A stretch of DNA of 64,000 nucleotides from contig DATHUP010000049.1 of assembly GCA_035462175.1 (NCBI GenBank), positions 52,614 through 116,613 on the forward strand. Reading direction: 5' to 3'. The first letter of the stretch is position 1. Every line of letters starts with the position of its first letter. Source of the DNA: Acidimicrobiia bacterium. GTDB taxonomy: Bacteria > Actinomycetota > Acidimicrobiia > Spongiisociales > ZC4RG35. The notes below the pieces were generated by a model. The model was not told where the DNA came from. It made no database searches and saw only the letters and a program-made list of their open reading frames with translations. The position numbers were made by a program, and so were the translations under genes. This document shows, piece by piece, positions 14,135 to 34,851 of the stretch.

Positions 14135-14143
14135 AGAACCGCG

Positions 14144-15499: not shown

Positions 15500-15565
15500 T
15501 CGCACTCCAATCGTCGCTAGTGCGACTTGCACACTACCACGCAATACGGAGTAGTGATCGGTCAA

Positions 15566-15611
15566 TTCCGAATGCAGCCCGTCACGGATACGCGACGCCA
15601 TGCATTAGGAA
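15566..15611. promoter_or_regulatory. copy B of the nested palindromic element; candidate PadR autoregulatory operator
   Basis: TTCCGAATGCA-gcc-CGTCACG-gata-CGCGACG-cca-TGCATTAGGAA, about 65 nt upstream of the probable padR start and just downstream of the amidohydrolase stop. Confidence 0.5.
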
Positions 15612-15615
15612 TCGT

Positions 15616-17079: not shown

Positions 17080-17119
17080 CGATGTTGATTCTGCCCCACA
17101 ACCGTGAGGTATGGGTCCG

Positions 17120-17166
17120 ATTCTTTATGCAGTCCGTCACGCATACGTGACGCCCTGCATTAGGAA
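17120..17166. promoter_or_regulatory. copy C of the nested palindromic element; candidate operator in the divergent amidohydrolase / nuoE control region
   Basis: gATTCTTTATGCA-gtc-CGTCACG-cata-CGTGACG-ccc-TGCATTAGGAA; 41-87 nt upstream of the amidohydrolase start and 60 nt upstream of the nuoE start. Confidence 0.5.
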
Positions 17167-17225
17167 CGCGGTGTGACCCCCCGGGTTTCGCTCGGGATAG
17201 GGGTGCTACCTAATCTCCGGCCTCG

Positions 17226-17849
17226 ATGAGTCAATGGTCGGAGGCCACTCAGGAGCGCGCCCGGCAGATCATGGCGCGTTATCCGCAGAAGCGGTCGGCG
17301 GTCATGCCGTTGCTCTATCTGGCCATGGCCGAGGAGGGCCATCTCAGCGACGAGGGGATGGAGGAAGTCGGCCGCTGGGTCGGCATCACCCCGGCCCAGG
17401 TGCAGGCAGTGGCCACCTTCTACACGATGTACAAGCGGAGACCGACCGGGAGGTACCTGATCTCGTGTTGCACCTCGATATCCTGCATGCTGCTTGGTGC
17501 TGACGACGTTCTTCACGGGGTCGAGGACGAGTCGGGCGTGCCCCACGGCGAGACCGATCCCGACGGGCTCTTCTCGGTGGAGCACGTCGAGTGCATCGGC
17601 GCCTGCGGGGGAGCGCCTGCGGTCCAGGTCAACTACGAGCTGATCGAGGGAGTGACCCCCGAGAAGGCCAGGGAGCTGGTGAGGTGGCTCGGCAAAGCCC
17701 GCCCCGAAGTGGTCAACGGCGACGAGATGCAGGAGCTGTTCGGCGGGGTTCGCAGCTTCGATTGGGCGATCAGGGAGGAAGACGGGGCGGTTGGCCCCTA
17801 TCCGGCCTTCCAGCCGCTGGGCACGGTGGGAAGCGAGGGCGGCGCTTGA
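17226..17849 (+). CDS. nuoE: NADH-quinone oxidoreductase subunit E
   Basis: 24-kDa subunit, 2Fe-2S motifs (CCTSISC...CIGAC). Confidence 0.9.
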   Translation: MSQWSEATQERARQIMARYPQKRSAVMPLLYLAMAEEGHLSDEGMEEVGRWVGITPAQVQAVATFYTMYKRRPTGRYLISCCTSISCMLLGADDVLHGVEDESGVPHGETDPDGLFSVEHVECIGACGGAPAVQVNYELIEGVTPEKARELVRWLGKARPEVVNGDEMQELFGGVRSFDWAIREEDGAVGPYPAFQPLGTVGSEGGA

Positions 17850-19159
17850 CGACGCCACTCGTTGTCACCAAGCGGATGACCGAGTTCCCCGCCGACTCGC
17901 ACAGCATCGACCGTTACGAGGCAACCGGCGGCTACGAGCAGGCCCGCCGCGCCCTGGGGATGACCCGGGACGAGCTGGTGGAGGAGATCAAGGCCTCGGG
18001 TCTTCTCGGGCGGGGCGGAGCCGCCTTCCCCGCCGGCCTCAAGTGGAGCTTTCTCGCCCCGGCCCGGCCCTCGTTCCTCGTGGTCAACGCCGACGAGTCG
18101 GAGCCGGGCACGTTCAAGGACCGCCAGTTGCTGGAACGAGACCCGCATCAGATGTTGGAGGGGGTGATGATCACCGCCATCGCCAACGAGGCGCACCACG
18201 CTTTCGTCTACATCCGTGGCGAGTACCCGAAGCCGGCTCGCCGGGTCCAGGCCGCAGTCGACGAGGCGTATGCCCGGGGGTATCTGGGAGGGGGGATCTT
18301 CGGCTCGGATTACGACCTGGATGTGATCGTCCACCTCGGAGCCGGCGCCTACATCTGCGGTGAGGAGACCGCCCTGATCAACAGTCTCGAAGGTCTCCGC
18401 GGCGAGCCGCGTCTCAAGCCGCCCTACTTCCCCGCGGCGAAGGGCCTCTACATGCAGCCCACCATCGTCAACAACGTCGAGACGGTGTCCAACCTGCCTC
18501 ACATCCTGGCGATGGGCGCCGAGGCCTACACCCAACTCGGTCACCCGGACGACACCGGGACCTTCCTCATCTCGGTCTCGGGTCATGTCAAGAAGCCGGG
18601 CAACTACGAGCTTCCCCACGGGATCACCTGGCGTCAGCTCATCTTCGACATTGCCGGGGGCATCGCCGGAGACCGGGAGTTGAAAGCGATCATCCCCGGC
18701 GGCGCCTCCGCGCCCTGGTTCGTCCCCGAGATCCACCTCGACGACCGGATCACCAAAGACGTCTGCGCCGAGGCGGGCTCGATGCTCGGGTCGGGTGCCG
18801 TAATCGTGATGGACGAGAACACCTGCATGGTGCGCGCTGCCGAGCGTCTGGTGCGTTTCTTCGCCCACGAGTCGTGCGGCCAATGCACCCCGTGCCGTGA
18901 GGGAACCACATGGATGGAGATGATCCTGCGCCGAATCGAGGAAGGTCAGGGGCGGGCCATCGATCTCGACCTCCTTCTCGACGTCTCCGACAACATCAGC
19001 GTCGGTCTCAACTGGCCCCCGAAGATGACCACCATCTGCCCCCTCGGCCCGTCGGCGGTGTCTCCGATCCTCGCCCTCCGCGACTACTTCCGCGACGAGG
19101 TCCAGGCCCACGTGGAATTGGGCGGATGTCCATTAGAACTGGCGAAGGCTGCAGTATGA
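17846..19159 (+). CDS. nuoF: NADH-quinone oxidoreductase subunit F (start uncertain: TTG 17846 or ATG 17876)
   Basis: 51-kDa subunit; NAD/FMN site GRGGAAFP, Fe-S site ESCGQCTPCREG. Confidence 0.85.
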   Translation: MTTPLVVTKRMTEFPADSHSIDRYEATGGYEQARRALGMTRDELVEEIKASGLLGRGGAAFPAGLKWSFLAPARPSFLVVNADESEPGTFKDRQLLERDPHQMLEGVMITAIANEAHHAFVYIRGEYPKPARRVQAAVDEAYARGYLGGGIFGSDYDLDVIVHLGAGAYICGEETALINSLEGLRGEPRLKPPYFPAAKGLYMQPTIVNNVETVSNLPHILAMGAEAYTQLGHPDDTGTFLISVSGHVKKPGNYELPHGITWRQLIFDIAGGIAGDRELKAIIPGGASAPWFVPEIHLDDRITKDVCAEAGSMLGSGAVIVMDENTCMVRAAERLVRFFAHESCGQCTPCREGTTWMEMILRRIEEGQGRAIDLDLLLDVSDNISVGLNWPPKMTTICPLGPSAVSPILALRDYFRDEVQAHVELGGCPLELAKAAV

Positions 19160-19315
19160 GCCTGACGCGAACCACTTCTGGGGGGACCACTACTTCTGGG
19201 GGGCGACCCCCAGACCCCCGCTCGCTCCGAGCCGTAAGTGCCAAGACATCACGGCGGCCAACCTCAGTGGTCGCGCCGGGCTGTGATCGCGAATGAGGCT
19301 CAAACCGTGAGCGAG

Positions 19316-21742
19316 ATGGGCCAAACGGTCAGCATCACCATCGACGGGGTGGAGCATCGGGTGGCGGCCGGGTCGCTGCTGATCAGGGCGGCCCAGGACA
19401 CCGGGACCTACATCCCCCGTTTCTGCTGGCACGAGCGGATGAAGCCGGTGGGGATGTGCCGGATGTGCCTGGTGGAGGTGGAGGGGCCGCGGGGGCCGAT
19501 GCTGGTCACGGCATGTACCAACGAGGTCGTCGACGGGATGGTGGTCGACACCGGGAACGCCACGGTGAGGAAGGCCCAGGAGGGGGTACTCGAGTTCCTC
19601 CTCGCCAACCACCCCCTCGACTGCCCTGTGTGCGACAAGGGAGGGGAATGCCCGCTTCAGGACCAGGCGTTCTCGCACGGGCCGGGAGAGAGCAGGTTCG
19701 TCGAGATCAAGCGCAACTACGAGAAGCCGATCGCGATCTCGAGCCTGGTCCTCCTCGACCGGGAGCGATGCATTCTCTGCGCTCGCTGCACCCGGTTCTC
19801 CGAAGAGATCAGTGGCGACCCGCTCATCGAGTTCAAGGCGAGGGCCAACATCACCGAGGTCAACACCTTTCCGGACCACCCCTTCGCCTCCTACTTCTCG
19901 GGCAACACCATCCAGATCTGCCCGGTCGGTGCCCTCACCTCGGTTCAGTACAGATTTCGCGCCCGGCCCTGGGACCTGCAGATGGTGGAGAGCTCCGGTC
20001 TCCACGACACCGCCCACCCGCGGGTGTCGGTCCATGCCAGCCAGAACCAGATCCTCCGGCTGGTGGGAGTGGACAACGACGCAACCAACCATGGCTGGCT
20101 CTCCGACAAGGAGCGGTTCGGCTTCGAGTACCTCGGCTCCGAGGAGCGTCTCACCGCACCGCTGGTTCGGAAAGACGGCCGACTGATCGAGGTGGATTGG
20201 GCCGAAGCCCTGGAGCTGGTGGCGGAGAGGATCGGGCGGATCAGGGACGAACACGGGGGTGAGTCGTTTGCAGTGATCGGCGGCGCTCACGGCACCAACG
20301 AGGACGCCTACGCCCTTGCCAAGTTCGCCCGTGTGGTGCTCGGGACCAACAACGTCGACGCCCGGCTCGATGACACGCTCGCATCGCATTTCCTGGCGGC
20401 CACGGTCGATCGAGCCCGGATCGCCGACATCGACACCGCCGACACCATCCTCGTCTGGGGGCCAGACCTGAAAGAAGAGCATCCCACCCTCTACCTGCGG
20501 GTGCGGATGGCGGCGCAAGAGCTCGGCGTCCGGCTGGTCGTGGTCCATCCCCGGGCCACCGGTCTCGACGACCGCGCCACCATCAAGGTCGAGTACCGCC
20601 CCGGGGCGGGCTTCGCCCTCCTCGACGAGATCGCCGAGGGCCGTCACCCCGAGCTGAGTGAGGCCCTCAGCGCAGAGCGGGTCGTGGTCTTCGCCGGGCA
20701 GGCCTCGTTCGCCGATGGTCCCCGGTTGGCCGAGGCGGTGGCGGCATACGTGCGGAGCAAGGCAGGCTCCACCCGCATCCTCCCCCTGGCTCGGAGGGGC
20801 AACCTCTTTGGCGCCCTGGACATGGGCCTCGCCCCCGACCTGCTTCCCGGGCGGGTGGGCGACGACGAGGCGGGCCGGGCGGCCCTCGCCGAAGCGTGGG
20901 GCGAGATCCCGGCGGCCCGGGGCCAGGACACCAAGGGGATGCTCGGAGGGCTGGCTTCGGGGGAGATCAGGTTCCTCCTCCTGGTCGGCTCCGACCCTGT
21001 CCGCGACCTGCCCGACCCGAGACCGGCACTCCCCGCCCTCGAGGGTGCGGAGTCCGTGGTCTCGATCGACCTGTTCCTCAACGACTCCAACCGGGAGGCC
21101 GACGTCATCTTCCCCGCAGCCGGCTTCACGGAAAAGGAGGGGACCGTGACGAACCTCGAGGGGCGGGTGCAGAAGGTGAACATGCTCGCCCCCGGCCCGG
21201 GTCAGACACGACCCGACTGGGCGATCCTGGCCGATCTGGCCGACAGGGCGGGTCGCTCGATCGGTCTTTCCTCCGCGGACACCATCGCCAAGGAGATCTC
21301 CGATCTGGCACCTGTCTACGCCGGGATCACCTGGGACCACCTGGAGTGGGAGGCCAGGGACGGGGCGGTCGTTCCGCTCTCCGGTGTCTCACCGCTCACT
21401 CACATCCCGGTCTCCCTGAAAGGCGACATCGCCCCGTCGGCGGAGTTGACGCTGCATGTGGGGCGGACCCTGTACGACGACGGGGTGATGATGAGGCACA
21501 GCCCCAATCTCCATCCTCTCGCCCCCGGGCCCCTGGCTCATCTCAACCCCGAAGATGCCAAGCGGGCAGGGGCGCTCCATGGTCACACGGTGAGAGTGGT
21601 GACCAAACACGGTGAGGGCGAGTTCTCCGCCGTGCTCGACGAGGGGACCCCGCCCGGCGTGGTCTACGTCCCTTTCAACCAGCCGGGCGCAGCTCCGCTG
21701 GGCACCGACGCCGTGGTCCGGGTAACGACGGTGGGCCGGTGA
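19316..21742 (+). CDS. nuoG: NADH-quinone oxidoreductase subunit G
   Basis: 75-kDa subunit: N-terminal 2Fe-2S/4Fe-4S Cys clusters (CRMCLVEV, CPVCDKGGECPLQD), molybdopterin-like domain; ATG 19316 (GTG 19307 is also in frame). Confidence 0.85.
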   Translation: MGQTVSITIDGVEHRVAAGSLLIRAAQDTGTYIPRFCWHERMKPVGMCRMCLVEVEGPRGPMLVTACTNEVVDGMVVDTGNATVRKAQEGVLEFLLANHPLDCPVCDKGGECPLQDQAFSHGPGESRFVEIKRNYEKPIAISSLVLLDRERCILCARCTRFSEEISGDPLIEFKARANITEVNTFPDHPFASYFSGNTIQICPVGALTSVQYRFRARPWDLQMVESSGLHDTAHPRVSVHASQNQILRLVGVDNDATNHGWLSDKERFGFEYLGSEERLTAPLVRKDGRLIEVDWAEALELVAERIGRIRDEHGGESFAVIGGAHGTNEDAYALAKFARVVLGTNNVDARLDDTLASHFLAATVDRARIADIDTADTILVWGPDLKEEHPTLYLRVRMAAQELGVRLVVVHPRATGLDDRATIKVEYRPGAGFALLDEIAEGRHPELSEALSAERVVVFAGQASFADGPRLAEAVAAYVRSKAGSTRILPLARRGNLFGALDMGLAPDLLPGRVGDDEAGRAALAEAWGEIPAARGQDTKGMLGGLASGEIRFLLLVGSDPVRDLPDPRPALPALEGAESVVSIDLFLNDSNREADVIFPAAGFTEKEGTVTNLEGRVQKVNMLAPGPGQTRPDWAILADLADRAGRSIGLSSADTIAKEISDLAPVYAGITWDHLEWEARDGAVVPLSGVSPLTHIPVSLKGDIAPSAELTLHVGRTLYDDGVMMRHSPNLHPLAPGPLAHLNPEDAKRAGALHGHTVRVVTKHGEGEFSAVLDEGTPPGVVYVPFNQPGAAPLGTDAVVRVTTVGR

Positions 21743-22842
21743 GCGGGGCCCAGTTCTGGATCGTGGTGCTGCGGGTGGTGCTCACGTTCGGCCTGCTGCT
21801 CCTGGTCACACTGCTCAACGTGTGGGCGGAGCGGAAGATCCTGGCCGATATGCAGAGCAGGATCGGGCCGAAACGGGCCGGCCCGTTCGGGATTCTCCAG
21901 ACCGTGGCCGACGGGCTCAAGCTGTTCTTCAAGGAGGCCGTCACCCCGCGCAAGGTCGAGTTGGGCATGTACCTCCTCGCCCCGTTCCTGGCCGTGGTCC
22001 CGGCCTTCCTCATCTTCATGATGGTGCCCTGGGGCAGGCCATTCATGATCGGGGACAACGAGGTCGCGCTGCAGGGAGCCGATCTCAACATCGGCCTGCT
22101 CTTCATCCTGGCCATGTCGTCGCTGGCGGTGTACTCGGTGGTCCTTGCCGGGTGGTCCTCCGGCTCCAAGTACCCCCTCCTCGGCGGGGTGAGGGCGACG
22201 GCCCAGGCGATCTCCTACGAGGCGGCGATGGGCTTGGCCATGGTGGCCGTGGTCATGTTCACCGCCACCCAAGGCGACGGAGGCACGCTCTCCCTGGCCG
22301 AAATCGTCAATCGTCAGGCCGGCACCTGGGGCGATGTGATCCCGGCACTGGAGCCGATCCTCCGCTTCGTCCCGAGATGGAACCTGTTCCCCCAAATCGT
22401 GGCCTTCGTCATCTTCTTCGTGGCCATCGTCGCCGAGACCAACCGCGCCCCGTTCGACCTGGTCGAGGCGGAGCAGGAGATCGTCGGCTTCCACACCGAG
22501 TACTCGGGGATGAGGTTCGCCATGTTCTTCCTCGCCGAATACGTCAACATCTTCTCTATGTGCGCCATCGCCGCCACCCTCTTCCTCGGTGGCTGGAACG
22601 GGCCAACCTTCGAAGGGTCGGTCCCCGGGTTCGTCTCCGCCCTCCTCCCAACGGTGTGGTTCCTGGCCAAGACCTACTTCCTGGTCTTCATCTTCTTCTG
22701 GATCAGAGCCACGCTTCCCCGGCTCCGCTACGACCAGCTGATGCAGGTGGGCTGGAAACGACTCATCCCGGCCGCTCTGGGCTGGCTCGTCGTTTCGGCA
22801 ACTGTCATATCGTTCCGTCAATTCGGTCCACCCTGGAGCTGA
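21739..22842 (+). CDS. nuoH: NADH-quinone oxidoreductase subunit H
   Basis: ND1-like polytopic protein; GTGA overlap with nuoG. Confidence 0.9.
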   Translation: MSGAQFWIVVLRVVLTFGLLLLVTLLNVWAERKILADMQSRIGPKRAGPFGILQTVADGLKLFFKEAVTPRKVELGMYLLAPFLAVVPAFLIFMMVPWGRPFMIGDNEVALQGADLNIGLLFILAMSSLAVYSVVLAGWSSGSKYPLLGGVRATAQAISYEAAMGLAMVAVVMFTATQGDGGTLSLAEIVNRQAGTWGDVIPALEPILRFVPRWNLFPQIVAFVIFFVAIVAETNRAPFDLVEAEQEIVGFHTEYSGMRFAMFFLAEYVNIFSMCAIAATLFLGGWNGPTFEGSVPGFVSALLPTVWFLAKTYFLVFIFFWIRATLPRLRYDQLMQVGWKRLIPAALGWLVVSATVISFRQFGPPWS

Positions 22843-22845
22843 GCA

Positions 22846-23501
22846 TGGGTCTCATAGCAGAGCTGATCAGAGGTCTCCGGGTGACTGGTGGGACGATGCT
22901 CCGCACCATCGCGGGCTCTGGGTTGGTCACCACCGAGTACCCAAAGGAGATGCGGGTCAAGCCGCAGCGCTTCCACGGGCGTCATGTGCTCAACCGCTAC
23001 CCCGACGGCATGGAGAAGTGCATCGGCTGCGAGCTCTGTGCCGGGGCGTGCCCCGCCGACTGCATCTACGTGCGGGGGATGGACAACGACCCGGAGGCCC
23101 CGACCTCGCCGGGAGAGAGATTCGGCTACGTGTACGAGATCAACATGCTCCGTTGCATCTTCTGCGGTCTGTGTGTCGAGGCATGCCCCACCGAGGCGAT
23201 CACCATGACCCATCTCTTCGAGTTCTCCACCACCAACCGCGAGGACGCGGTCTACACCAAAGAGACGCTGCTCATGGAGCGGGACGGGACCGTGCCTCAC
23301 ATGTTCCCCGACGACGAGTTGGCCGATCTCGGCGAGCTCGACACCGCCGACGGGTGGATGCGGGCCACGGCCTCCTCGGGGGTCGCCGCCTACGAGGGGA
23401 CCCTGATGTGGCAGGGCACCCCCGGGCCGGCCGACTGGGCTCCCGAGCCCACCCAGGAGGAGCGAGACCGCAGGAGTGGTGAGGACGAGACCGATGGTTG
23501 A
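22846..23501 (+). CDS. nuoI: NADH-quinone oxidoreductase subunit I (with ~60-aa C-terminal extension)
   Basis: Two 4Fe-4S ferredoxin motifs (CIGCELCAGACP, CIFCGLCVEACP). Confidence 0.85.
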
Positions 23502-24018
23502 GGGCGTCCTCTTCGTCATAGCCGGGCTCGCCGCCCTGGCCGGGGCGGTGACCGTCGTGGTGGCGAGGAACCCGGTCTACTCGGCCGTGGGCCTGCTCGG
23601 CACCTTGTTCTCGGTGGCCGTGCTCTACGTGCTCCAGCTGGCCCACCTCGTGGCCGCGGTCCAGGTGATCGTCTACGCCGGAGCGGTGATGACCTTGTTC
23701 CTCTTCGTGATCATGCTCATCGGCGTGGACAAAGAGGAGACCCGGTCGGAGTCACTCCCGCTGCAGCGGATATGGGTCGGGATGTTGGCCGTGGGGATGA
23801 TCCTCTTCGCCGCCGGCGTCACCCTGTTCGGGGACTTCGAGTGGGTGCCGGCCGCCTCGGCGAGGTTCATCGAGAGCAACACCAACGGCACGATCCAGGC
23901 CATCGCCGAGCCCCTGTTCACCGATTGGGTGCTTGCCTTCGAAGCCACGGCGCTGCTCTTGACCATCGCCGCGGCGGCCGCCGTGGTGCTGGCCCAGTTC
24001 AAGAGAAAGCGATCCTGA
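23494..24018 (+). CDS. nuoJ: NADH-quinone oxidoreductase subunit J
   Basis: ND6-like; overlaps the nuoI end. Confidence 0.8.
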
Positions 24019-24320
24019 TGGTCCCGGTCGACTGGTACATGGGGCTGGCTGCTGCGCTGTTCCTCATCGGCGCCCTCGGCATGTTGCTCAGACGCAACGC
24101 ACTGGTCATGTTCATGTGCATCGAGCTGATGCTCAACGCAGTCAACCTGACCCTCATCTCGGCGGGCCGGGTCATGAACGACATCAACGGGCAGGTGGCG
24201 GTGTTCTTCATCCTGGTGGTTGCCGCCGCCGAGGTGGTGGTCGGCCTGGCCATCATCGTGGCCATCTTCCGCCGGCGCTCTACGGCCTCGGTAGACGAGT
24301 TGAGCGAGATGAGAGGCTGA
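24018..24320 (+). CDS. nuoK: NADH-quinone oxidoreductase subunit K
   Basis: ND4L-like, 100 aa, ATGA-type overlap with nuoJ. Confidence 0.85.
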
Positions 24321-24340
24321 TGATGCTTCGCATCATCAGC

Positions 24341-24413
24341 CGCTACGAGCGACGAGCCACGAGCCATGAGCCAGAAGCTCGTTGCTCGTTGCTCGTTGCT
24401 CGTTGCTCATTGC
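24341..24413. repeat. intercistronic heptamer-periodic hairpin repeat, copy R1 (GAGCNAC arm / GCTCGTT arm)
   Basis: Left arm cgctacgagcgacgagccacgagccatgagc, loop cagaa, right arm (gctcgtt)x4 gctcattgc; preceded by small hairpin tgatgc-ttc-gcatca; lies between nuoK and nuoL. Confidence 0.8.
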
Positions 24414-24426
24414 TGGAGGTCACAAC

Positions 24427-26310
24427 GTGACCGACTATCTCTGGCTGGTCATTGCCCTTCCGCTGGCCGGGTCTCTGTTCTTGCACTTTTTCGGGCGGTA
24501 TGTGCGCGAGCCGCTGAGTGGGTGGCTGGCCTCGGTGGCGATCGGGGGTGCGTTCGTCATCGCTGCTGTGGCGGCTTGGCCCTTCCTCGAGGGAGGTGAG
24601 GCGGCGAGCACGATCGCGCTCTGGGAGTGGATGCCCGCGATCGGGGCGTCATTCGAGCTGTTGTGGGACCCGCTGGCCGCACTGATGACCCTGGTCGTGA
24701 CCGGGGTGGGCACCCTGATCCACGTCTTCGCCATCGGCTACATGCACGGTGACGAGAGGTTCCATCGTTTCTTCACCTACCTCAACCTGTTCGCCGCCTC
24801 CATGCTCACCCTGGTCCTCGCCGGGAACTACGCCATGTTGTTCCTCGGCTGGGAGCTGGTCGGGCTCTGCTCCTACCTGCTCATCGGGTTCTGGTTCACC
24901 CGGCCCACCGCCTCCGCTGCGGCCAAGAAGGCCTTCGTCGTCAACCGGATCGGCGACTTCGGGTTCATGATCGGCTTGATGCTGGTCTTCGCCACCTTCG
25001 GCACGCTCTCCTTCGGCGACGTGTTCGAGAGAGCCGGCGCCGAGATGAGCAGCGGGCTGGCCACGGCCATCGGCCTGCTCTTCCTGCTCGGGGCGGCGGG
25101 CAAGTCGGCTCAGATCCCTCTCTACGTGTGGCTGCCCGACGCCATGGAGGGTCCCACCCCGGTGTCGGCCCTGATCCATGCCGCCACCATGGTCACCGCC
25201 GGCGTCTACGTGATCGCCCGCTCCGCCCCCATCTACGAGTTGACCCCGTTCGCCTCGACGGTGGTGGCCAGCGTCGGGGCCCTCACCGCGATTTGGGCCG
25301 CCTCGATCGCCCTGGCCCAGCGCGACATCAAGCGCGTCCTCGCCTACTCGACCATCTCCCAACTCGGGTTCATGTTCCTCGCAGTGGGCACCGCCGCCTA
25401 TGTGGCCGGAGTCTTCCACCTCATGACCCACGCCTTTTTCAAGGCCCTCCTCTTCCTCGGTGCCGGATCGGTGATCCATGCCATGAGCGACGAGCAGGAC
25501 ATGCACAAGATGGGTGGGTTGCGGCGCAGGATGCCGATCACCGCGGCCACGATGGGGATCGCCTCCCTGGCCCTGGCCGGGATCCCTCCCCTGGCCGGTT
25601 TCTGGTCCAAGGACGAGATCCTCGCCGCGGGTTTCGCCCGGGGCGGCTGGTACTACTTCCTCTGGGTCATCGGGCTGGTCACAGCCCTGCTCACCGCCTT
25701 CTACATCACGAGGTTGTGGGCCCTGGTCTTTCTCGGAGAGCCGCGCTGGGCCGAGGGCGCCCAACCGCACGAATCGCCAAGGGTGATGACACTCCCCCTC
25801 ATCGCATTGGCCGCACTCTCCGTGGTGGGTGGGTTGGTCAACACGCCGTTCCGCCTCACCCTGGAGCACTTCCTCGAGCCAAGCTTCGAGTTGGTCCATC
25901 TGCAGCACGCCCCTGACGACTGGGCGCTCCTGGGGATCTTGGCCGGTCTCTCCACCCTGGCCGCACTCGGCGGCGCCGCGGCTGGGTACCTGGCCTACAA
26001 CCGGCCGCCGGAGAGATGGAGACGGTTCGAGGATTCCTTCCAACCGCTCTGGGGGGCATGGGAGCAGGCGTACGGGGTCGACGATCTCTACGGGAGAGCC
26101 CTGGTCGCGCCCGGCCGGCGACTGGCCGAGATCGGTGCCTTCGACTTCGACGCCAGAGTGGTCGATGGGGCGGTCAACGGTGTGGGCCGCCTGGTCCGGG
26201 ACGTCGGCGAATGGGCCCGCCCCCTCCAGACCGGTTTCGTCCGAAACTACGGAGTGTTGTTCCTCGCAGGTGCCCTCGTGGTCATCACCTGGCTGGTGGC
26301 GGGCGGATGA
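24427..26310 (+). CDS. nuoL: NADH-quinone oxidoreductase subunit L
   Basis: ND5-like antiporter subunit; GTG start preceded by GGAGG (the ORF-track start at 24382 reads through the repeat and is rejected). Confidence 0.85.
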   Translation: MTDYLWLVIALPLAGSLFLHFFGRYVREPLSGWLASVAIGGAFVIAAVAAWPFLEGGEAASTIALWEWMPAIGASFELLWDPLAALMTLVVTGVGTLIHVFAIGYMHGDERFHRFFTYLNLFAASMLTLVLAGNYAMLFLGWELVGLCSYLLIGFWFTRPTASAAAKKAFVVNRIGDFGFMIGLMLVFATFGTLSFGDVFERAGAEMSSGLATAIGLLFLLGAAGKSAQIPLYVWLPDAMEGPTPVSALIHAATMVTAGVYVIARSAPIYELTPFASTVVASVGALTAIWAASIALAQRDIKRVLAYSTISQLGFMFLAVGTAAYVAGVFHLMTHAFFKALLFLGAGSVIHAMSDEQDMHKMGGLRRRMPITAATMGIASLALAGIPPLAGFWSKDEILAAGFARGGWYYFLWVIGLVTALLTAFYITRLWALVFLGEPRWAEGAQPHESPRVMTLPLIALAALSVVGGLVNTPFRLTLEHFLEPSFELVHLQHAPDDWALLGILAGLSTLAALGGAAAGYLAYNRPPERWRRFEDSFQPLWGAWEQAYGVDDLYGRALVAPGRRLAEIGAFDFDARVVDGAVNGVGRLVRDVGEWARPLQTGFVRNYGVLFLAGALVVITWLVAGG

Positions 26311-26321
26311 GCAAGCTCATC

Positions 26322-26392
26322 CGCCGTTCTACGTTTTACGTGTTACGTCCTACGTACGACGTAGGGCGTAGGACGTATGACGGGGCGACCGG
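26322..26392. repeat. intercistronic heptamer-periodic hairpin, TACG-type variant
   Basis: ttctacg ttttacg tgttacg tcctacg / tacgacg tagggcg taggacg tatgacg; arms complementary (tcctacg vs cgtagga); between nuoL and nuoM. Confidence 0.7.
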
Positions 26393-26401
26393 AGGTCGCC
26401 C

Positions 26402-27931
26402 ATGTTGACCGCCCTCGTGCTGGTGCCTGCGGTCAGCGCCTTGATCGTGGCGTTGGTGCCTTCGCGGAGGAGGGAGGTCCATCTCCCGCTCGGGATCGCC
26501 CTGTCGGTGATGCCGCTCGCCCTCGCCGGCTATCTGTTCTGGGTATTCGAGCCGGCGGCAGGGTTCCAATATGTCGACCGGGTGGCCTGGTACGAGCCAT
26601 GGGGGATCGACTGGTTCCTCGGTGTCGACGGGATCTCCCTGCCGATGGTCGCCCTTACCACCCTCTTCGTTCCCATCGCCCTCGCCGCCTCGACCTCGAT
26701 CACCACCCGGACCAAGGAGTTCGTGGTCTTCACGTTGTTGCTCGAGGCCGGTCTGATTGGGGCCTTCCTCGCCCTCGACCTGTTCCTCTTCTTCGTCTTC
26801 TTCGAGGCGATGCTGATCCCGATGTACTTCATCATCGGAATCTGGGGCTCGGAGCGTCGGGTCTACGCCGCGGTCAAGTTCTTCATCTACACCGCTTTCG
26901 GCTCCGCCCTGCTGCTGGCCGCGATCATCGGTCTCGCCCTGATCCATGCCACCGAGGAAGGTTTTGCCTCCTTCGCCCTGACCGACCTGGTCGGGCTCGA
27001 CCTCTCCGTCGGCGCGGAACGATGGCTCTTCGCCGCCTTCGCCATCGCCTTTGCCATCAAGGTCCCGCTCTTCCCGTTCCACACCTGGCTCCCCGATGCC
27101 CATGTCGAGGCGCCGACGGCCGGCTCGGTCCTGCTCGCCGCAGTCCTCCTGAAGCTGGGCACCTACGGCCTGCTTCGCTTCAACCTGGCGCTCTTCCCGG
27201 AGACCTCGGTCGACGCGGTTCCGATCATGGCCGCCCTCGCGGTGATCGGGATCATCTACGGGGCGGTGGTCGCCATCGTCCAGCCTGATCTCAAGAAGCT
27301 CGTCGCCTACTCCTCGGTCAGCCATCTCGGCTTCATCGTGCTCGGCACCTTCGCCCTGACCTCGGGGGGTTTACAGGGCGCGGTGATCCAGAACGTGAAC
27401 CACGGGCTGACCACCGGTGCCCTCTTCCTCCTGGTCGGGATGATCTACGACCGGAGACACACCAAGAAGATCGCCGACTTCGGAGGTCTGCAGAAGACAG
27501 TCCCCATGCTCGCCGGGTTCTTCCTCTTCATGGCTTTCGCCTCGATCGGGCTCCCCGGCCTGAATGGGTTCGTCGGGGAGTTCCTGGTCCTCATCGGGAG
27601 CTTCCCCACCCTCCCCGTCCCGACCGTCCTCGCCGCCTCCGGGGTGGTGCTCGCCGCCATCTACCTGCTCTGGGCCTACGAACGGGTCTTCACCGGTGTC
27701 CCCGACAACGAGGAGAACAAGGTCCTGTCCGACCTCTCACCCCGTGAGATCGCGGTCCTCGCACCCTTGGCCGTGTTGGTGCTCGTGATCGGGCTCTATC
27801 CCAACCTGCTCCTCGACAAGATCACGCCTTCGACCGAGGCCGTGCTCGACCACATCGAGGCGCAGACCGACTTCGTCGTTCCCGAACCGGGACGGATCGA
27901 CGAGGTCGTGATGATCGGAGGCGAAGGATGA
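26402..27931 (+). CDS. nuoM: NADH-quinone oxidoreductase subunit M
   Basis: ND4-like antiporter subunit. Confidence 0.9.
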   Translation: MLTALVLVPAVSALIVALVPSRRREVHLPLGIALSVMPLALAGYLFWVFEPAAGFQYVDRVAWYEPWGIDWFLGVDGISLPMVALTTLFVPIALAASTSITTRTKEFVVFTLLLEAGLIGAFLALDLFLFFVFFEAMLIPMYFIIGIWGSERRVYAAVKFFIYTAFGSALLLAAIIGLALIHATEEGFASFALTDLVGLDLSVGAERWLFAAFAIAFAIKVPLFPFHTWLPDAHVEAPTAGSVLLAAVLLKLGTYGLLRFNLALFPETSVDAVPIMAALAVIGIIYGAVVAIVQPDLKKLVAYSSVSHLGFIVLGTFALTSGGLQGAVIQNVNHGLTTGALFLLVGMIYDRRHTKKIADFGGLQKTVPMLAGFFLFMAFASIGLPGLNGFVGEFLVLIGSFPTLPVPTVLAASGVVLAAIYLLWAYERVFTGVPDNEENKVLSDLSPREIAVLAPLAVLVLVIGLYPNLLLDKITPSTEAVLDHIEAQTDFVVPEPGRIDEVVMIGGEG

Positions 27932-29388
27932 TCGCCACGCCCGAGATCTCCTGGATCGCCATCGCCCCCGACCTGGCCCTCGCCGTCGGTGCTGCCCTGG
28001 TGCTGCTGGTCGACGTGCAATGGAAGCCGCGGCCCGTGGTGCTGGGATGGGTTGTCGGGGCCACCCTGGCCGTGGTGGCCGGTTTGACCATCCTGCAATG
28101 GCTGATCGGGACCGACGCCGTGGCCGCGGGGGACAGCGCGAGCCTGATCGCGTTCTCCGGGATGATCACGATGGACGGGTTCACCGTCTTCGCCCGTCTC
28201 GCATTGATCGCTGCGACGGCACTGGGTGTGACCGGCGGCTGGCGCTTCGTGGTCGGGATGGGCCGTCGCGGGGCGGAGGCCCTGGCCCTCGTCTTGCTGG
28301 CGACGGCCGGCTTCTCACTGATGGTCGCCTCCAACAACCTGGTCATGATGTTCCTCGGTCTGGAAGTCGGCTCGATCTCCCTCTACGTGCTCGCCGGGCT
28401 TGCCCGGGAGAGAAGGGAATCTGAGGAGGCGGCGATCAAGTACTTCCTGCTCGGGTCCTTTGCCTCCGCCCTGTTCGTGTACGGGGTGGCCCTGATCTAC
28501 GCCGGCACCCGGCAATTCCAGATCCTCGAGATCCGGCACTACCTGGACAACTTCATCGTGACCAACCCGGCGGTTATCTACGTCGGGCTCGGGCTCGTGA
28601 TCGCCGGTCTCGGGTTCAAGGTGTCGGCCGCCCCCTTCCACGCCTGGGCCCCCGACGTCTATCAGGGGGCGCCGGCCGGACTGGTCGGATACCTGGCCGC
28701 GGTGGCGAAGATCGCCGGATTCGCCGCCATAGCCCGGGTCCTGCTCACCGCTCTCCCCGAACTGGACGCCGCCTGGATGCCGGTTGTGGCCGGGATCTCG
28801 GTCGTGTCCATGACTCTCGGCTCGTTGCTCGCCCTCGTCCAAGGGGACGTCCGCCGGCTACTCGCCTACTCCGGAGTGGCCCACGCCGGGTTCATCATGA
28901 CCGGCGTCGTCGGCGGGTCGACGGAGGCGATCCTGTTCTATCTGGCCATCTACTCCATCCAGCTGCTCGGCGCCTTCGCCGTGGTGTCGGTGGTGAGCGG
29001 CCCCGACGGGGCCGGGTCGGCTCTGGATCGGTATCGCGGGCTGGGTCGGCGAAGCCCTCTCCTCGCCTCGTCCTTCGCCGTCCTCCTCCTGGGGATGGGG
29101 GGTCTGCCCCTGACCTCGGGGTTCGTGGCCAAGTTCGGCGTGTTCACCGAGGCGTGGGCCCGGGGATACGAATGGCTGGTCATTGTGGCCGTGGTGGCAT
29201 CGGTGGTCGCCTTTGCCTTCTATATCCGGGTCATCGTCGTGATGTACATGGACGACGCCGGGGACGAGGAGTCGTTGAGGGTCGGGCCCGAGGGTTGGGT
29301 GTTGGCGGTGGCTGTCGGAACGACGATTCTCTGGGGCATCTTCCCGTCGTCGCTTCTCGATCTGGCAGCTGATGCGCTTCCGCTATAG
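27928..29388 (+). CDS. nuoN: NADH-quinone oxidoreductase subunit N
   Basis: ND2-like antiporter subunit; ATGA overlap with nuoM. Confidence 0.9.
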   Translation: MIATPEISWIAIAPDLALAVGAALVLLVDVQWKPRPVVLGWVVGATLAVVAGLTILQWLIGTDAVAAGDSASLIAFSGMITMDGFTVFARLALIAATALGVTGGWRFVVGMGRRGAEALALVLLATAGFSLMVASNNLVMMFLGLEVGSISLYVLAGLARERRESEEAAIKYFLLGSFASALFVYGVALIYAGTRQFQILEIRHYLDNFIVTNPAVIYVGLGLVIAGLGFKVSAAPFHAWAPDVYQGAPAGLVGYLAAVAKIAGFAAIARVLLTALPELDAAWMPVVAGISVVSMTLGSLLALVQGDVRRLLAYSGVAHAGFIMTGVVGGSTEAILFYLAIYSIQLLGAFAVVSVVSGPDGAGSALDRYRGLGRRSPLLASSFAVLLLGMGGLPLTSGFVAKFGVFTEAWARGYEWLVIVAVVASVVAFAFYIRVIVVMYMDDAGDEESLRVGPEGWVLAVAVGTTILWGIFPSSLLDLAADALPL

Positions 29389-30542: not shown

Positions 30543-32927
30543 TCAGATACCCGGGTTGACGCCCAGGTGGGCGACCTCGACCGTCCCCTCGAACCGCTTG
30601 ACCGGTGGCCGGGAACGGTCGGCGATCACTGTGAACACCCCGGCGTGGACCAGGTCCTGTGACGAGGCGCCGACCATGACCTCGATCTCCCCGGGCTCGA
30701 CCACGTAGCTCAGGTGGCGATCGTAGAAGCCGAGCTGGCCCACCGGCAGCCGGAAGGTGACTCGCTTCGAGGCTCCGGCCTCCACCTCGACCCGGACGAA
30801 GCCCTTCAGCTCCAGCACCGGCCGGGTCACGCTGGCCTGCGGGTCGCGCACATAGAGCTGGACCACTTCGTCGCCATCCCGCTGACCGGTGTTGACCACC
30901 TCGATCGCGACGCTCACCTCGTCGTTCCAGGTCACGAGGTCGGGGGTCACCGACGGCGAGCTGAGCTCGAAGGTGGTGTAGCTCAGACCGTGGCCGAACG
31001 GGTACAGCGGGGCCACCGGGCCGTCGACGTAGTCGCCCTTCCAATAGGATCTCCCACCGGACACCTTGTGCCCGTAGTAGACCGGGATCTGGCCGACGGT
31101 GCGAGGGTGGGTGATGGGGAGCTTGCCCCCCGGGTTCACCTCTCCGGTCAACACGTCGACGATCGCAGCGGCACCCTCCTGACCGGGGAGCCAGGCGGCG
31201 ACCACCGCCGCGCAACTCTCATGGGCCCAAACGCTGCCGGTGGGTCGCCCGGCAACCAGAACCAGCACCACTGGGGTACCCGTCTTGACCACTTCCGCCA
31301 GCAGTGCCTCCTGCACCCCGGGAAGATCCAGCGAGTGCCGGTCCCTGCTCTCACCGCTGGTGCAGTCTTCGGTCAGGCCGGACTTGTCGCCGAGAACGAG
31401 GACCGCCACATCGGAGTCGGCGGCCAGGGCCACGGCCTCGGCGAAACCTTCGGTCGAGTCCTCGCTGATCCCACACCCCATGGCGAGGCGCACTTTGTCC
31501 CCAAAGCGGCCCTCCAGCGCATCGAAGACGGTGGGGAAGCGAATCGTCGGCCCACCGAGGTCGGCCTCGTCGGGAAGGGGAATCGAGAACACGTTGCCGT
31601 GGTCCCGCATCTCGAGGAGCGACTCGACATGGGCCGGATAGGTGTAGTCGCCGAAGAGGTTGCGGGCCTCATGTGCGTTGGGGCCGATGACGGCGATCGA
31701 CTCCAGCTTCGGTGACAACGGCAGGATCCCATCGTTGCGCAGCAGAACGATGCTCTTCCGGGCCAGTCGCCCCGCCAGCTCCAGCTGGAAGGGAGTGCTC
31801 ATCACCGATAGGGCCACGTCGGGATCGATGAAAGGATGTTCGAAGAGCCCGAGCTCGAGCTTGGCGCGGAGGACCCGGCTCACCGCGTCGTCCAGCGTGG
31901 CCTCGGTCAACCTGCCCGATTCCAGTGCCTGAAGCAGCGGCTGTCCGTAACAGTCGGTCGAGGGGAGCTCCACGTCGAGACCGGCTTCGAGTGCGATCGA
32001 GGCCGCCTCGGGGGCGTCCTCGGCCAGATGGTGGTAGTCGCTGAGCTGGCGCACCGCGAAGTAGTCGGAGACCACGCAACCCTGGAACTCCCACGACCGG
32101 CGCAGGATCTCGGTGAGCAGCTCCCGGTCGGCGGCTCCGGGGACGCCGTCGATCTCGTGGTAGCCGTTCATGACGGATCGAAGCCCGGCGAGCTTGACCG
32201 CTGCCTCGAAGGGGTGGAGATAGACCTCGCGCAACTCGCGCGGCGGGATGTGGGCAGGTGCCCAGTTGAGCCCACCTTCGGAGGCCCCGTATCCGACGAA
32301 GTGCTTCCCGGTGGCTACAACACCGTTGGTCGGCGAGTTTCCCTGCAGACCCCGGACCATGGCCAAGCCCATCTGGGCCACGAGATGGGGGTCCTCGCCG
32401 AATGTCTCCTCGGTCCGTCCCCACCTCGGGTCGCGGCAGACGTCGAGGACCGGGGACAGCCCCTGATGGGCGCCCACCGCTCTCATCTGGACCCGGACAA
32501 CGTCGGCCATCGCCTCGGCCAGCCCCGGGTCCCATGTGCTGGCCACACCGATGGCCTGGGGAAACACGGTGGACTGGCTGGCCATCAGACCGGAACAGAC
32601 TTCCTCGTGGACGATGGCGGGGATCCCGAGCCGGGTTCCCTCCAGGAGGAACCGCTGGATCTCGTTGGCGAGGCGGGCCGCCTCTGCCGCCCCGAGGCTG
32701 CTGGCACCGGAGATTCTGGTCACCTGGCCGAGTCCCCGTCGGAGCAAGGGCGCCGCCTTCGACTCGGACAGACGGTCGCCCTCGGTCAGCTGGAACACCC
32801 AGACGCTGCCCAGTTGGGCCACCTTCTCCTCGCGTGTCATCCGGCGCAACAGGTCTGCGGCGCGCTCGTCCGCCCCCCGAGACGGGTCGCGATACGGCGG
32901 CGCCTGCTCCAGCGGGACGGTGCTCAT
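30543..32927 (-). CDS. glycoside hydrolase family 3 beta-glucosidase (BglX-like, with FnIII-like C-terminal domain)
   Basis: GH3 N- and C-terminal domain motifs (GFVVSDY..., KHFVGYGASEGG). Confidence 0.85.
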   Translation of the reverse strand: MSTVPLEQAPPYRDPSRGADERAADLLRRMTREEKVAQLGSVWVFQLTEGDRLSESKAAPLLRRGLGQVTRISGASSLGAAEAARLANEIQRFLLEGTRLGIPAIVHEEVCSGLMASQSTVFPQAIGVASTWDPGLAEAMADVVRVQMRAVGAHQGLSPVLDVCRDPRWGRTEETFGEDPHLVAQMGLAMVRGLQGNSPTNGVVATGKHFVGYGASEGGLNWAPAHIPPRELREVYLHPFEAAVKLAGLRSVMNGYHEIDGVPGAADRELLTEILRRSWEFQGCVVSDYFAVRQLSDYHHLAEDAPEAASIALEAGLDVELPSTDCYGQPLLQALESGRLTEATLDDAVSRVLRAKLELGLFEHPFIDPDVALSVMSTPFQLELAGRLARKSIVLLRNDGILPLSPKLESIAVIGPNAHEARNLFGDYTYPAHVESLLEMRDHGNVFSIPLPDEADLGGPTIRFPTVFDALEGRFGDKVRLAMGCGISEDSTEGFAEAVALAADSDVAVLVLGDKSGLTEDCTSGESRDRHSLDLPGVQEALLAEVVKTGTPVVLVLVAGRPTGSVWAHESCAAVVAAWLPGQEGAAAIVDVLTGEVNPGGKLPITHPRTVGQIPVYYGHKVSGGRSYWKGDYVDGPVAPLYPFGHGLSYTTFELSSPSVTPDLVTWNDEVSVAIEVVNTGQRDGDEVVQLYVRDPQASVTRPVLELKGFVRVEVEAGASKRVTFRLPVGQLGFYDRHLSYVVEPGEIEVMVGASSQDLVHAGVFTVIADRSRPPVKRFEGTVEVAHLGVNPGI

Positions 32928-32970
32928 CGGCCCCGTCCCCGAAACCGGCCGGTTCTGTCGATCATCTCTC

Positions 32971-33840
32971 TCACCCCTTCAGGGCACCCTTGGGGAGGAT
33001 GCCGCGCACGATCTGACGTTCGGCAATGACGTAGAAGAGGATGGCGGGGAGCATGGCCAGGGTGGTGTAGGCGAGCACGAGGGCGGTGTCGGTCGAGTAC
33101 TGGGCCGATATGTTGTTGACCCCGATGGGGAGGGTCCACTGCTCGGCGCGGATCAGGACGTGGAGGGGGAGGAGGAAGGCGTTCCAGCTGGTCACGATGG
33201 CGAGCACCGCCACCGTGCTCATGACCGGCCGCGACAGGGGAAGCATCACCGACCAGTAGAAGCGGAGCGGGCCGCAGCCGTCAAGGGAGGCGGCGTCTTC
33301 GAGATCTCTGGGGATGCCCTGGAAGAAGGGACGGATGATGACGATGGACAGGGGAAGGGCGAAGGCGGCCTGGGGCAGTGCCACCCCGAGCGGGTTGTCG
33401 AGGAGCCCGGTCTGGCGGAGCACGATGAAGAGGGGGAGGATGGCCACGGCCACCGGGAAGAGAAGCCCGAGAGTGAACAGGGCGTATACCGCGTTGCGAC
33501 CCCGGAACTTGAACCGGGCGATGACGAAGGCGGCCAGAGAGGAGGCTGGGAGGACCAGGAGGATGGTGACGAGGGCGATGAAGGCGCTGTTCCCCATCTG
33601 CTTCCAGAATGAGGCGGAGCCCAGGGTCTCCAGGTAGTTGCTGGTGACCCAAGGGTCGGGGAGGCTCACCGGGTCGACCACGAGCTGGCCGGTGGTGCTG
33701 AAGCCGCCGAGCACGGCGAAGGCGAGGGGGACGATGATCACCGCCAGCACCCCGAGCGCGACGATATAGAGCAGTCCCCGGCCCACGGTCCGTCGCAGGC
33801 GGTGATTCGGTGCTGTCCTCGGGTGGGTCACATCAAGCAC
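32971..33840 (-). CDS. carbohydrate ABC transporter permease
   Basis: 6-TM MalG-like permease with EAA loop (DAASLDGCGPLRFYW). Confidence 0.8.
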   Translation of the reverse strand: MLDVTHPRTAPNHRLRRTVGRGLLYIVALGVLAVIIVPLAFAVLGGFSTTGQLVVDPVSLPDPWVTSNYLETLGSASFWKQMGNSAFIALVTILLVLPASSLAAFVIARFKFRGRNAVYALFTLGLLFPVAVAILPLFIVLRQTGLLDNPLGVALPQAAFALPLSIVIIRPFFQGIPRDLEDAASLDGCGPLRFYWSVMLPLSRPVMSTVAVLAIVTSWNAFLLPLHVLIRAEQWTLPIGVNNISAQYSTDTALVLAYTTLAMLPAILFYVIAERQIVRGILPKGALKG

Positions 33841-34810: not shown

Positions 34811-34851
34811 ACCGGCGGCCCTCCGGCTCGACCGATTTCAGTCGAATCTCA

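Follow-up and report, generated by a model that had tools for sequence, protein, structure and literature searches.

The window, which is the whole stretch of 64,000 nucleotides analysed here from contig DATHUP010000049.1 of an Acidimicrobiia bacterium, carries two operons for the subunits of complex I (nuo genes, Table 1). It is nearly identical to contig k141_368896 of metagenome assembly ERZ27272640 of the European Nucleotide Archive (ENA) and differs from it by about one single-nucleotide polymorphism per 2.5 kb and one 1047-bp insertion. The gene calls were transferred from this contig and supplemented by Pfam scans. The nuo start codons match the calls on the public contig and the N-termini of orthologues. 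Most nuo cistrons of the window overlap by 4 or 1 nt, and spacers of 91-130 nt lie at seven junctions (K1-L1, L1-M1, D2-H2, I2-J2, J2-K2, K2-L2 and M2-N2; the figure denotes the operon). The subject of this work is the short hairpins at the start codons behind these spacers, which a preliminary description of the DNA had pointed out, and the spacers that they close.

Each short start hairpin ends a spacer of about 100 nt that is built around a long hairpin of tandem 7-nt repeats. The repeat units are ACGAGCN and, in the complementary arm, GCTCGTT in six of the spacers, and CGTNNTA and ACGTAGG in the L1-M1 spacer. Such heptad arrays were found nowhere else in the 64-kb window. Furthermore, each of the seven spacers contains a small, stop-free open reading frame (ORF) in the third frame, the one used by neither of the flanking genes. 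The lengths of the spacers (106, 91, 112, 103, 100, 109 and 130 nt, in the order given above) all leave a remainder of one when divided by three (1 mod 3). The ATG of this bridging or relay ORF overlaps the stop codon of the upstream gene as ATGA in five cases, as TGATG in one and as ATGGTGA in one. Its TGA falls on the downstream start codon as GTGA four times and otherwise 4, 7 or 10 nt into the gene, i.e. between +1 and +10 of the start in all seven spacers. Both other frames of the K1-L1 spacer are closed. In the L1-M1 spacer the first two ACGTAGG-type units contain TAG, each in one of the two frames that are not used by the bridging ORF, and the third unit contains TAT. Thus, the exchange of TAG for TAT in the third heptad leaves the relay frame without a stop codon. 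A Pfam scan of the seven bridging peptides gave no family. Their sequences simply reproduce the repeats (ATSYELR, CSLLVAR) and differ between close relatives where the repeats differ, hence a function of the peptides is unlikely; what is conserved would be translation through the spacer and not its product.

Table 1 Features of the complex I operons and of their intercistronic spacers, in window positions (SD, Shine-Dalgarno sequence)
Feature	Positions	Strand	Remarks
Operon 1	11364-14134 (nuoA-D); 17271-29388 (nuoE-N)		three opposite-strand genes between the two parts
Operon 2	53751 to beyond 64000		11 subunits: nuoA, B, C, D, H, I, J, K, L, M, N
Bridging ORF K1-L1	24320-24430	+	36 aa; TGATG at nuoK1 stop; GTGA at nuoL1 start
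Bridging ORF L1-M1	26307-26408	+	33 aa; ATGA on nuoL1 stop; TGA 4 nt into nuoM1 (ATGTTGA)
Bridging ORF D2-H2	56418-56546	+	42 aa; ATGA on nuoD2 stop; TGA at +10 of nuoH2, in 3' arm of the hairpin
Bridging ORF I2-J2	58032-58142	+	36 aa; ATGA on nuoI2 stop; GTGA on nuoJ2 start 58139
Bridging ORF J2-K2	58687-58800	+	37 aa; ATGA on nuoJ2 stop; TGA at +7 of nuoK2 start
Bridging ORF K2-L2	59090-59209	+	39 aa; ATGGTGA on nuoK2 stop; GTGA on nuoL2 start 59206
Bridging ORF M2-N2	62868-63005	+	45 aa; ATGA on nuoM2 stop; GTGA on nuoN2 start 63002
Long hairpin K1-L1	24345-24414	+	ACGAGCN / GCTCGTT
Long hairpin L1-M1	26325-26382	+	CGTNNTA / ACGTAGG
Long heptad hairpin D2-H2	56442-56516	+
Long heptad hairpin I2-J2	58056-58122	+
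Long heptad hairpin J2-K2	58691-58771	+
Long heptad hairpin K2-L2	59116-59191	+
Long heptad hairpin M2-N2	62883-62954	+
Stop-codon hairpin nuoK1	24312-24344	+	GGCTGATGATGC-TTC-GCATCATCAGCC; covers nuoK1 stop and start of bridging ORF
SD and start hairpin nuoL1	24415-24432	+	SD GGAGG 24415-24419; GTG at 24427; arms GGTCAC 24418-24423 and GTGACC 24427-24432, 6 bp, loop AAC
Hairpin nuoM1	26383-26404	+	GGGCGACC-GGA-GGTCGCCC, then ATG at 26402; arms 26383-26390 and 26394-26401, 8 bp
SD/start hairpin nuoH2	56517-56547	+	GTCAGGAAGGACAC-CCA-GTGTCCTTCCTGAC; GTG at 56534; arms 56517-56530 and 56534-56547, 14 bp, perfect
Start-region hairpin nuoJ2	58114-58144	+	weak
Hairpin nuoK2	58768-58794	+	GCATCGTTCGCC-GGA-GGTGAACGATGC; ATG 58791 within stem; arms 58768-58779 and 58783-58794, 12 bp including one G-U
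SD/start hairpin nuoL2	59193-59215	+	CGGAGGTCAC-GAA-GTGACCTCCG; arms 59193-59202 and 59206-59215, 10 bp
Stem around SD and start of nuoN2	62958-63013	+	CTCGAGGGTT / GACCTTCGAG; weak

[quoted passage not shown] All five repeats were found in the sequence. The locked geometry applies to nuoL1, nuoL2 and nuoH2, where codons 2-4 are the pairing partner of the SD and the start codon is paired to the three bases that precede a 3-nt loop. It does not apply fully to the other two genes: in nuoK2 the start ATG is paired, but half of the SD lies in the loop, and in nuoM1 the SD is located in the loop and the 3' arm and the ATG just beyond the main stem. The folding energy around each start was compared with 200 dinucleotide-preserving shuffles. 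Four hairpins were more stable than expected (z -3.4 to -7.0), namely nuoH2 (-28.9 kcal/mol, z -6.98, 0/200 shuffles as stable), nuoL2 (-18.0 kcal/mol, z -4.56, 0/200), nuoK2 (-20.1 kcal/mol, z -3.43, 1/200) and nuoM1 (-18.4 kcal/mol, z -3.38, 2/200), but nuoL1 stayed within the range of the shuffles. The folds at the remaining two post-spacer starts are weak. At nuoJ2 the sequence TCGTGAG, which surrounds the start, is paired to the last 3' heptad, with the SD GGAGG in the loop and 3' arm (z -1.48, 19/200 shuffles as stable); z is -1.87 at nuoN2 (8/200). Taken as a group, the nuo starts behind the seven spacers show the strongest structure of all starts in the window, with a mean local minimum free energy (MFE), calculated over positions -25 to +20, of -17.4 kcal/mol versus -10.3 kcal/mol for the rest of the 63 called gene starts (Mann-Whitney p 0.0011). 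Values of -15 kcal/mol or lower were obtained for five of the seven, versus 6/56 other starts (Fisher p 0.0012).

Start hairpins are not limited to nuo genes, as two minus-strand starts (34810 and 32927) carry them as well. The start of an ATP-binding cassette (ABC) transporter permease gene at 34810 (34780-34852), downstream of the gene of its solute-binding protein, shows a 10-bp SD/anti-SD hairpin, GGAGGGCCGC-cggtgt-GCGGCCCTCC, with the lowest local MFE among the 63 starts. A relay ORF is missing from its spacer of 41 nt, whose length is 2 mod 3. The junction between a permease and a GH3 gene (32927-32971, minus strand) has a 43-nt spacer, which is 1 mod 3, and a 7-bp hairpin at the GH3 start. 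A relay-type ORF begins there with GTGA on the stop codon and has its own stop at +1 of the GH3 start; hence, genes other than nuo share the relay layout.

For comparison, 80 operon-2 loci from different Acidimicrobiia species (metagenome-assembled genomes) with 70-96% NuoL2 identity were examined. The junctions were mapped by tblastn; labels such as L004 denote single loci of relatives. About nine usable relatives of operon 1 were obtained by a metagenome scan. The usual state of the operon-2 junctions in the relatives is an overlap of -4 or -1. Spacers of at least 50 nt occur at D-H in 26/65, at I-J in 23/72, at J-K in 15/75, at K-L in 42/77 and at M-N in 22/68 loci, and almost never at A-B, B-C, C-D, H-I and L-M. 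In the operon-2 junctions of L001 and L004-L083, it is the genes of membrane subunits that have a spacer in front of them, namely H, J, K, L and N (in operon 1, L and M). Despite the same -4/-1 overlaps, a spacer is almost never located before B, C, D and I, which encode the peripheral arm.

Unrelated types of sequence were found at the same junction in different species, among them heptad hairpins of many different units, the element CCGGCCGAC...GTCGGCCGG and others. This diversity and the polymorphism in presence and absence indicate that the spacers are lineage-specific insertions into originally coupled junctions. The nuo junctions of other species, and of the other operon as well, can also hold a second family of repeats, TTGCCGGCCGACTTCGCCC...GGGCGAACAGACGCCGGTCGGCCGG, whose ends are inverted over a long range (K2-L2 in L010, L011, L016, L018, L022, L025, L031, L051, L055 and L067; K1-L1 in L088). 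This family, too, maintains the relay frame (25/29), but start hairpins are absent from it. The closest relative, L004 (96% NuoL2 identity), has spacers at the same two junctions (L004 81-198 and 3830-3977) as the window at K2-L2 (59097-59205) and M2-N2 (62872-63001). The hairpin loop of the K2-L2 spacer is similar in both (CCAGAGCGCG..TCTGGC). The repeats of L004, however, are wholly different: at both loci the two arms have TAAGCC/GGCCTAT in place of ACGAGCT/GCTCGTT. Within a genome, the heptad repeats thus appear to undergo concerted replacement or homogenisation.

A length of 1 mod 3 also prevails in the relatives. Of 173 spacers of at least 30 nt from the 80 loci, 126 have such a length (binomial p 3e-26), and a count by sequence cluster gives 102/142 (p 8e-21). 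This measure rests on the relative frames of the two flanking genes only and not on the start codon chosen. The rule holds for all three types of spacer. The relay ORF is complete in 136/173 spacers and in 118/126 of those that are 1 mod 3. The relay frame is free of stop codons in 142/173 spacers, the other two frames in 81 and 82, and stop codons occur at 0.86 per 100 codons in the relay frame versus 2.45 and 2.21 in the others. The independent metagenomes with relatives of operon 1 agree with this, since 9/10 long spacers are 1 mod 3 and 10/10 have a relay-type ORF.

The start hairpins are tied to this frame. With a score of 12 or more taken as a strong start hairpin, the stop of the relay ORF falls between +1 and +14 of the hairpin-covered start in 33/34 cases, and a start hairpin was found in only one of the 37 spacers that lack a relay ORF (Fisher p 0.0013). 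In hairpins whose 3' arm starts with the start codon, such as those of the window, the relay stop is situated in this arm. A ribosome that finishes the relay ORF must therefore unwind the hairpin. In spacers of the CCGGCCGAC...GTCGGCCGG element the relay frame is kept in 25/29 cases and a start hairpin is present in 1/29.

Start-anchored stems of at least 8 Watson-Crick bp were detected in 15/137 spacers of at least 50 nt versus 6/479 junctions of at most 15 nt (Fisher p 1.3e-6). Controls with shuffled upstream sequence gave such stems in 0.6%, versus the 11% observed in long spacers. A recurrent form, found in four genes and twelve genomes, consists of a purine-rich SD, one base, CAC, three bases, GTG and a pyrimidine-rich run. 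The CAC at -6 to -4 before GTG is present in 14/58 long spacers versus 0/190 short junctions (p 4e-10). Beyond the CAC:GTG pairs selected in this way, the next six positions are 67-80% Watson-Crick, compared with 26-42% in the remaining GTG starts behind mid-length and long spacers. In 15 cases, distributed over four genes, the 3' arm starts exactly at the start codon. In the anchored alignment (A1) 77.6% of the cells are paired versus 34-41% when the arms are slid against each other, and both sides change in 7/12 pairs. The local MFE (-25 to +20) of the relatives is shifted for nuoH2, nuoL2, nuoJ2 and nuoK2, not for nuoN2; the start-anchored stem score is more specific.

The preliminary description had named a lack of covariation across orthologues as one outcome that would contradict its proposal. 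The stems do covary: the score is 0.260 versus 0.170 +/- 0.027 and lies above 499 of 500 shuffles, with one as high. The nuoL2 stem GGAGGTCAC/GTGACCTCC of the window, for example, is replaced by the compensated stem GGAGATCAC/GTGATCTCC in L008 and L028. The nuoH2 stem has 14 bp in the window and 18 bp in L008. It covaries in L008, L049, L023, L051, L006 and L028; its spelling differs in the last five of these and also in L053. L088 has a hairpin of the nuoM1 kind, whose loop contains the SD, but with another stem. The conservation of the palindromes, which had been suggested as a check, is partial, since they recur and covary, but only in about 10-25% of comparable spacers, and are degraded in the closest relative. 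The structured initiation suggested earlier is borne out by the folds, and translational coupling receives strong indirect support from the bridging ORFs, which the preliminary description did not contain. Rfam covariance models at gathering thresholds gave 0 matches in the whole window, and neither a sigma-70-like promoter nor an intrinsic terminator with a T tract was found within the spacers. Hence, nothing points to the "regulated" start that had also been considered.

The best explanation of the start hairpins is that they are the 3' ends of intercistronic insertions in nuo stop/start junctions that once overlapped (ATGA, TGATG). The downstream nuo genes are probably translated by ribosomes that are passed on from the preceding gene. 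In this proposal, a small bridging ORF in the third frame spans each spacer. It begins at the upstream stop codon, the ancestral site of re-initiation, and ends on the downstream start or within 10 nt after it (GTGA, ATGTTGA and similar). A ribosome that has completed the upstream subunit would re-initiate on the bridging ORF, melt the long hairpin and then the SD/start hairpin, and terminate on the genuine start codon, about 7 nt past the SD, where it could initiate again. If no ribosome arrived, the SD and the start codon would be held in a stem of -8 to -29 kcal/mol and free 30S subunits would be excluded. By this block of de novo initiation and the re-initiation that follows, the synthesis of the membrane subunits would stay tied to that of the preceding subunit despite the insertion. 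As a complementary benefit, a translated spacer may avoid Rho-dependent polarity. A hop of the ribosome across the base of the long hairpin was also considered; the relay ORFs make it unnecessary. Taken together, we consider it fairly probable that the spacers are insertions resembling mycobacterial interspersed repetitive units (MIRUs), which keep translational coupling by the relay ORF, and that the hairpin silences free initiation.

Several observations weigh against this interpretation. We infer the translation of the bridging ORFs from frame statistics, and the ribosome would also have to cross the long, stable hairpin inside the ORF. Strong start hairpins were found in 33 of the 136 spacers with a relay ORF and are missing in 103, so the hairpin is dispensable for the relay. 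They occur in only about 10-25% of comparable spacers and in about one quarter of those of the heptad type. The nuoL1 hairpin (-8.3 kcal/mol, z -1.75, 16/200 shuffles as stable) is not significant alone, and occlusion fits less well for nuoK2 and nuoM1, where much of the SD is exposed in the loop. The start hairpins turn over quickly between close relatives; at nuoL2 of L004 the coding arm is identical and two changes disrupt the 5' arm. At the non-Watson-Crick positions of the stems G-U and A-C are balanced (11 versus 11 and 4 versus 2), and without an excess of G-U over A-C, selection on the RNA of the sense strand is not demonstrated. Furthermore, the presence of a hairpin is unrelated to the strength of the SD. 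That the hairpin compensates for a strong SD was rejected, because the energy of the SD-anti-SD duplex is linked neither to the hairpin score (Spearman p 0.37) nor to the class of spacer.

A further point concerns the opposite end of the spacers. The stops of nuoK1 and nuoL1 (24312-24344 and 26301-26325) and the overlapping bridging ATG lie in perfect 11-12-bp palindromes, which consist of the last codons of the gene and their inverted copy and mirror the start hairpins. Together with the near-perfect stems, these palindromes keep alive the view, likewise unfavourable to an initiation role, that the hairpins arose with the insertion. The hairpin would then be a by-product or scar of the inserted element, formed by its own fold or by inverted copying of the flanking coding sequence, and the relay ORF alone would preserve expression. 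Stems of near-perfect palindromes without excess of G-U, rapid turnover among close relatives, a hairpin in only about one quarter of the relay spacers and the last-codon palindromes at the other spacer end all agree with such an origin. However, when the stem of a given gene differs between species, both arms are altered jointly, as in the nuoL2 example above, and the 3' arm begins exactly at the start codon in the 15 cases mentioned. For a pure insertion scar it is also unexpected that hairpins are nearly absent where no relay ORF exists (1/37), and their rarity in spacers of the CCGGCCGAC type (1/29) shows that they are no general property of insertions. We regard the scar as an unlikely origin, yet one with real weight.

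With considerable reserve, the spacers may further be taken as unrecognised mobile or self-expanding DNA of Acidimicrobiia. Such DNA would target overlapping ATGA junctions before membrane-protein genes, build palindromes from the flanks at both ends, homogenise its 7-nt repeats throughout the genome and survive only as a translated relay ORF. Palindromes built from flanking coding sequence would account for the hairpins at both the stop and the start codons. If this were true, relay and hairpins might act as a delay between the successive syntheses of membrane subunits.

A role in processing or stability of the transcript appears improbable. In this case the long hairpin would be cut, e.g. 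by RNase III, and the short hairpins at the ends would shield the cistrons from exonucleases, which would give the segments specific half-lives. The layout of the spacer with three hairpins and helices beside stop and start is compatible with it, and for the hairpins of 7-bp repeats between cyanobacterial hupS and hupL an effect on transcript stability is proposed in the passage of PMC2670836 on these repeats. But the 1-mod-3 rule, the open relay frame and the ATGA/GTGA overlaps would stay unexplained. A protective 5' hairpin needs neither SD nor start codon and, if it included them, would block translation. Moreover, the stems are anchored at the start codon and not at a fixed distance from the long hairpin.

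Hairpins of the SD/anti-SD kind are the usual form of switches that respond to temperature, small RNAs (sRNAs) or proteins. An autonomous riboregulator, as a thermometer or as the target of an sRNA or protein, could thus open on a signal and set the synthesis of the membrane arm independently of upstream translation. This form is what speaks for it. Against it stand the missing Rfam match in the window, the stability of the -18 to -29 kcal/mol stems, which is too high for thermal melting, stem sequences that vary by gene and species and so leave no common site for a ligand or sRNA, and the unexplained tie to the relay ORFs; we consider it very improbable. The same low probability is given to an action of the palindromes on the DNA as protein-binding, cruciform or recombination sites. 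Perfect inverted repeats and the lack of a strand-specific G-U signal would suit it, but the sequence differs at every gene, and the 3-nt spacer between the arms and the exact register with SD, start codon and relay stop point to the mRNA. Finally, chance complementarity of purine-rich SDs to pyrimidine-rich early codons (ACC TCC, TCC TTC CTG), with which the nuoL1 stem within the shuffle range and the anti-SD-like CCTTCC from the conserved F-L codons of NuoH agree, has a negligible probability and is ruled out as explanation of the whole set by the shuffles (0.6% versus 11%), by the covariation and by the CAC:GTG geometry, which like the stems of 14-18 bp exceeds SD complementarity.

Some further features of the window were noticed. 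Operon 1 is split between nuoA-D and nuoE-N (11364-17271) by genes of the HAAS, PadR and amidohydrolase families on the opposite strand. The nuoF1-nuoG1 spacer (19156-19306) has 147 nt, is 0 mod 3 and strongly folded, and has no heptad repeats. It contains an ATGA-started ORF of 46 codons, which stops 13 nt short of the start called for nuoG1; a longer alternative nuoG1 ORF from 19238 is possible. The apparent 217-nt spacer after surE (49934-50158, minus strand) holds an uncalled ORF of 74 aa, rich in Cys and His, with ATGA overlaps at both ends. It has the motif …CAHQPCTCH…CSEVC…CGCEHATC… and no Pfam match, and has the appearance of a genuine small metal-binding protein that the gene caller overlooked. 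The 1047-bp insertion (7882-8928), which is absent from the ENA contig, is an insertion-sequence polymorphism between two assemblies of one species. On its minus strand (7891-8886) lies the gene of an IS30-like transposase of 331 aa with HTH_38 and rve integrase core domains.

The class of mechanism proposed here, an occluded RBS in a coupled pair combined with a short ORF that delivers ribosomes, is already known. For the gene pairs f1 VII-IX, MS2 coat-lysis and E. coli rpmI-rplT, structures that occlude the RBS are described with a model of RNA unfolding, and downstream genes of coupled pairs are often silenced by structure (PMC12548453). The nuo junctions are similar in that SD and start of the downstream gene lie in a local stem, that the upstream frame ends within melting reach (all seven window spacers, +1 to +10; 33 of 34 hairpin junctions, +1 to +14) and that matched synthesis of neighbouring products would be expected. 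The masking structure is well supported for nuoL2, nuoH2, nuoK2 and nuoM1 (z -3.4 or lower) and in relatives, and weak for nuoL1, nuoJ2 and nuoN2. The nuo junctions differ in the putative masking partner, which is formed here by the first codons of the downstream gene itself. Furthermore, the melting ribosome would not come directly from the preceding gene but from a predicted, unannotated bridging ORF in an inserted repeat.

MIRUs are direct tandem units of roughly 50-100 bp. According to the section on them in PMC12548453, which refers to Supply et al. 1997, they insert at start codons and carry an ORF that is coupled at -4. Common to both systems are repeats of Actinomycetota between operon genes at start codons, with an internal ORF that has 4-nt overlaps with the flanking stop and start, and an insertion that costs little expression. 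In contrast, the nuo spacers consist of 7-nt units in two complementary arrays that form a long hairpin, sometimes with short stop and start hairpins, instead of tandem direct units of about 50-100 bp, and the host belongs to the Acidimicrobiia and not to Mycobacterium. Architecture and host set the two apart.

In cyanobacteria, short tandemly repeated repetitive (STRR) sequences of 7 bp form a hairpin, e.g. between hupS and hupL; a role in stability or translational coupling was proposed, and their function is given as unknown in the part of PMC2670836 that deals with them. As in the nuo operons, a hairpin of tandem heptanucleotides separates genes that are transcribed together and encode a membrane-associated redox enzyme. 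The two systems differ in phylum and in the sequence of the repeats (here ACGAGCN/GCTCGTT and CGTNNTA/ACGTAGG), and that part of PMC2670836 mentions neither a bridging ORF nor a start-codon hairpin for STRRs. Another short intercistronic ORF is mgtQ between mgtC and mgtB of Salmonella (PMC8092293). Its translation remodels stem-loops that control a downstream membrane transporter. However, mgtQ uses alternative stem-loops and destabilisation of the ribosome, with no relay from start-on-stop to stop-on-start and no repeat family. Termination-reinitiation overlaps of the type NUGA/URRUG are common for upstream ORFs (uORFs) and ORFs of M. tuberculosis (bioRxiv 10.1101/2022.06.01.494293). The same motifs (ATGA, GTGA, TGATG) are present at the ends of the bridging ORFs, in the same phylum, but those of M. 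tuberculosis belong to leader uORFs or annotated neighbours and not to ORFs that cross an inserted hairpin repeat. The spacers belong neither to a curated family of cis-regulatory RNA, as no covariance model matched in the window, nor to intrinsic terminators or attenuators, as no GC-rich stem with a T tract lies inside them.

A literature search gave no description of a heptad hairpin with an obligatory, doubly overlapping bridging ORF and a start hairpin that is polymorphic in complex I operons of Acidimicrobiia. If the relay exists, it represents a natural experiment on the strength of selection for translational coupling: in about 140 independent spacer sequences from 80 species one throw-away frame would have been kept open, with 4-nt overlaps at both ends. 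A search rule would follow from it (length 1 mod 3, ATGA...NTGA, open third frame), which could expose hidden coupling relays and wrongly annotated "intergenic" regions in uncultured Actinomycetota. The idea developed for MIRUs would then reach beyond mycobacteria, and coupling would become, in addition to stability, a testable function of hairpins of heptanucleotide repeats. The start hairpins themselves are an ordinary control element compared with the known systems; the informative part is their context.

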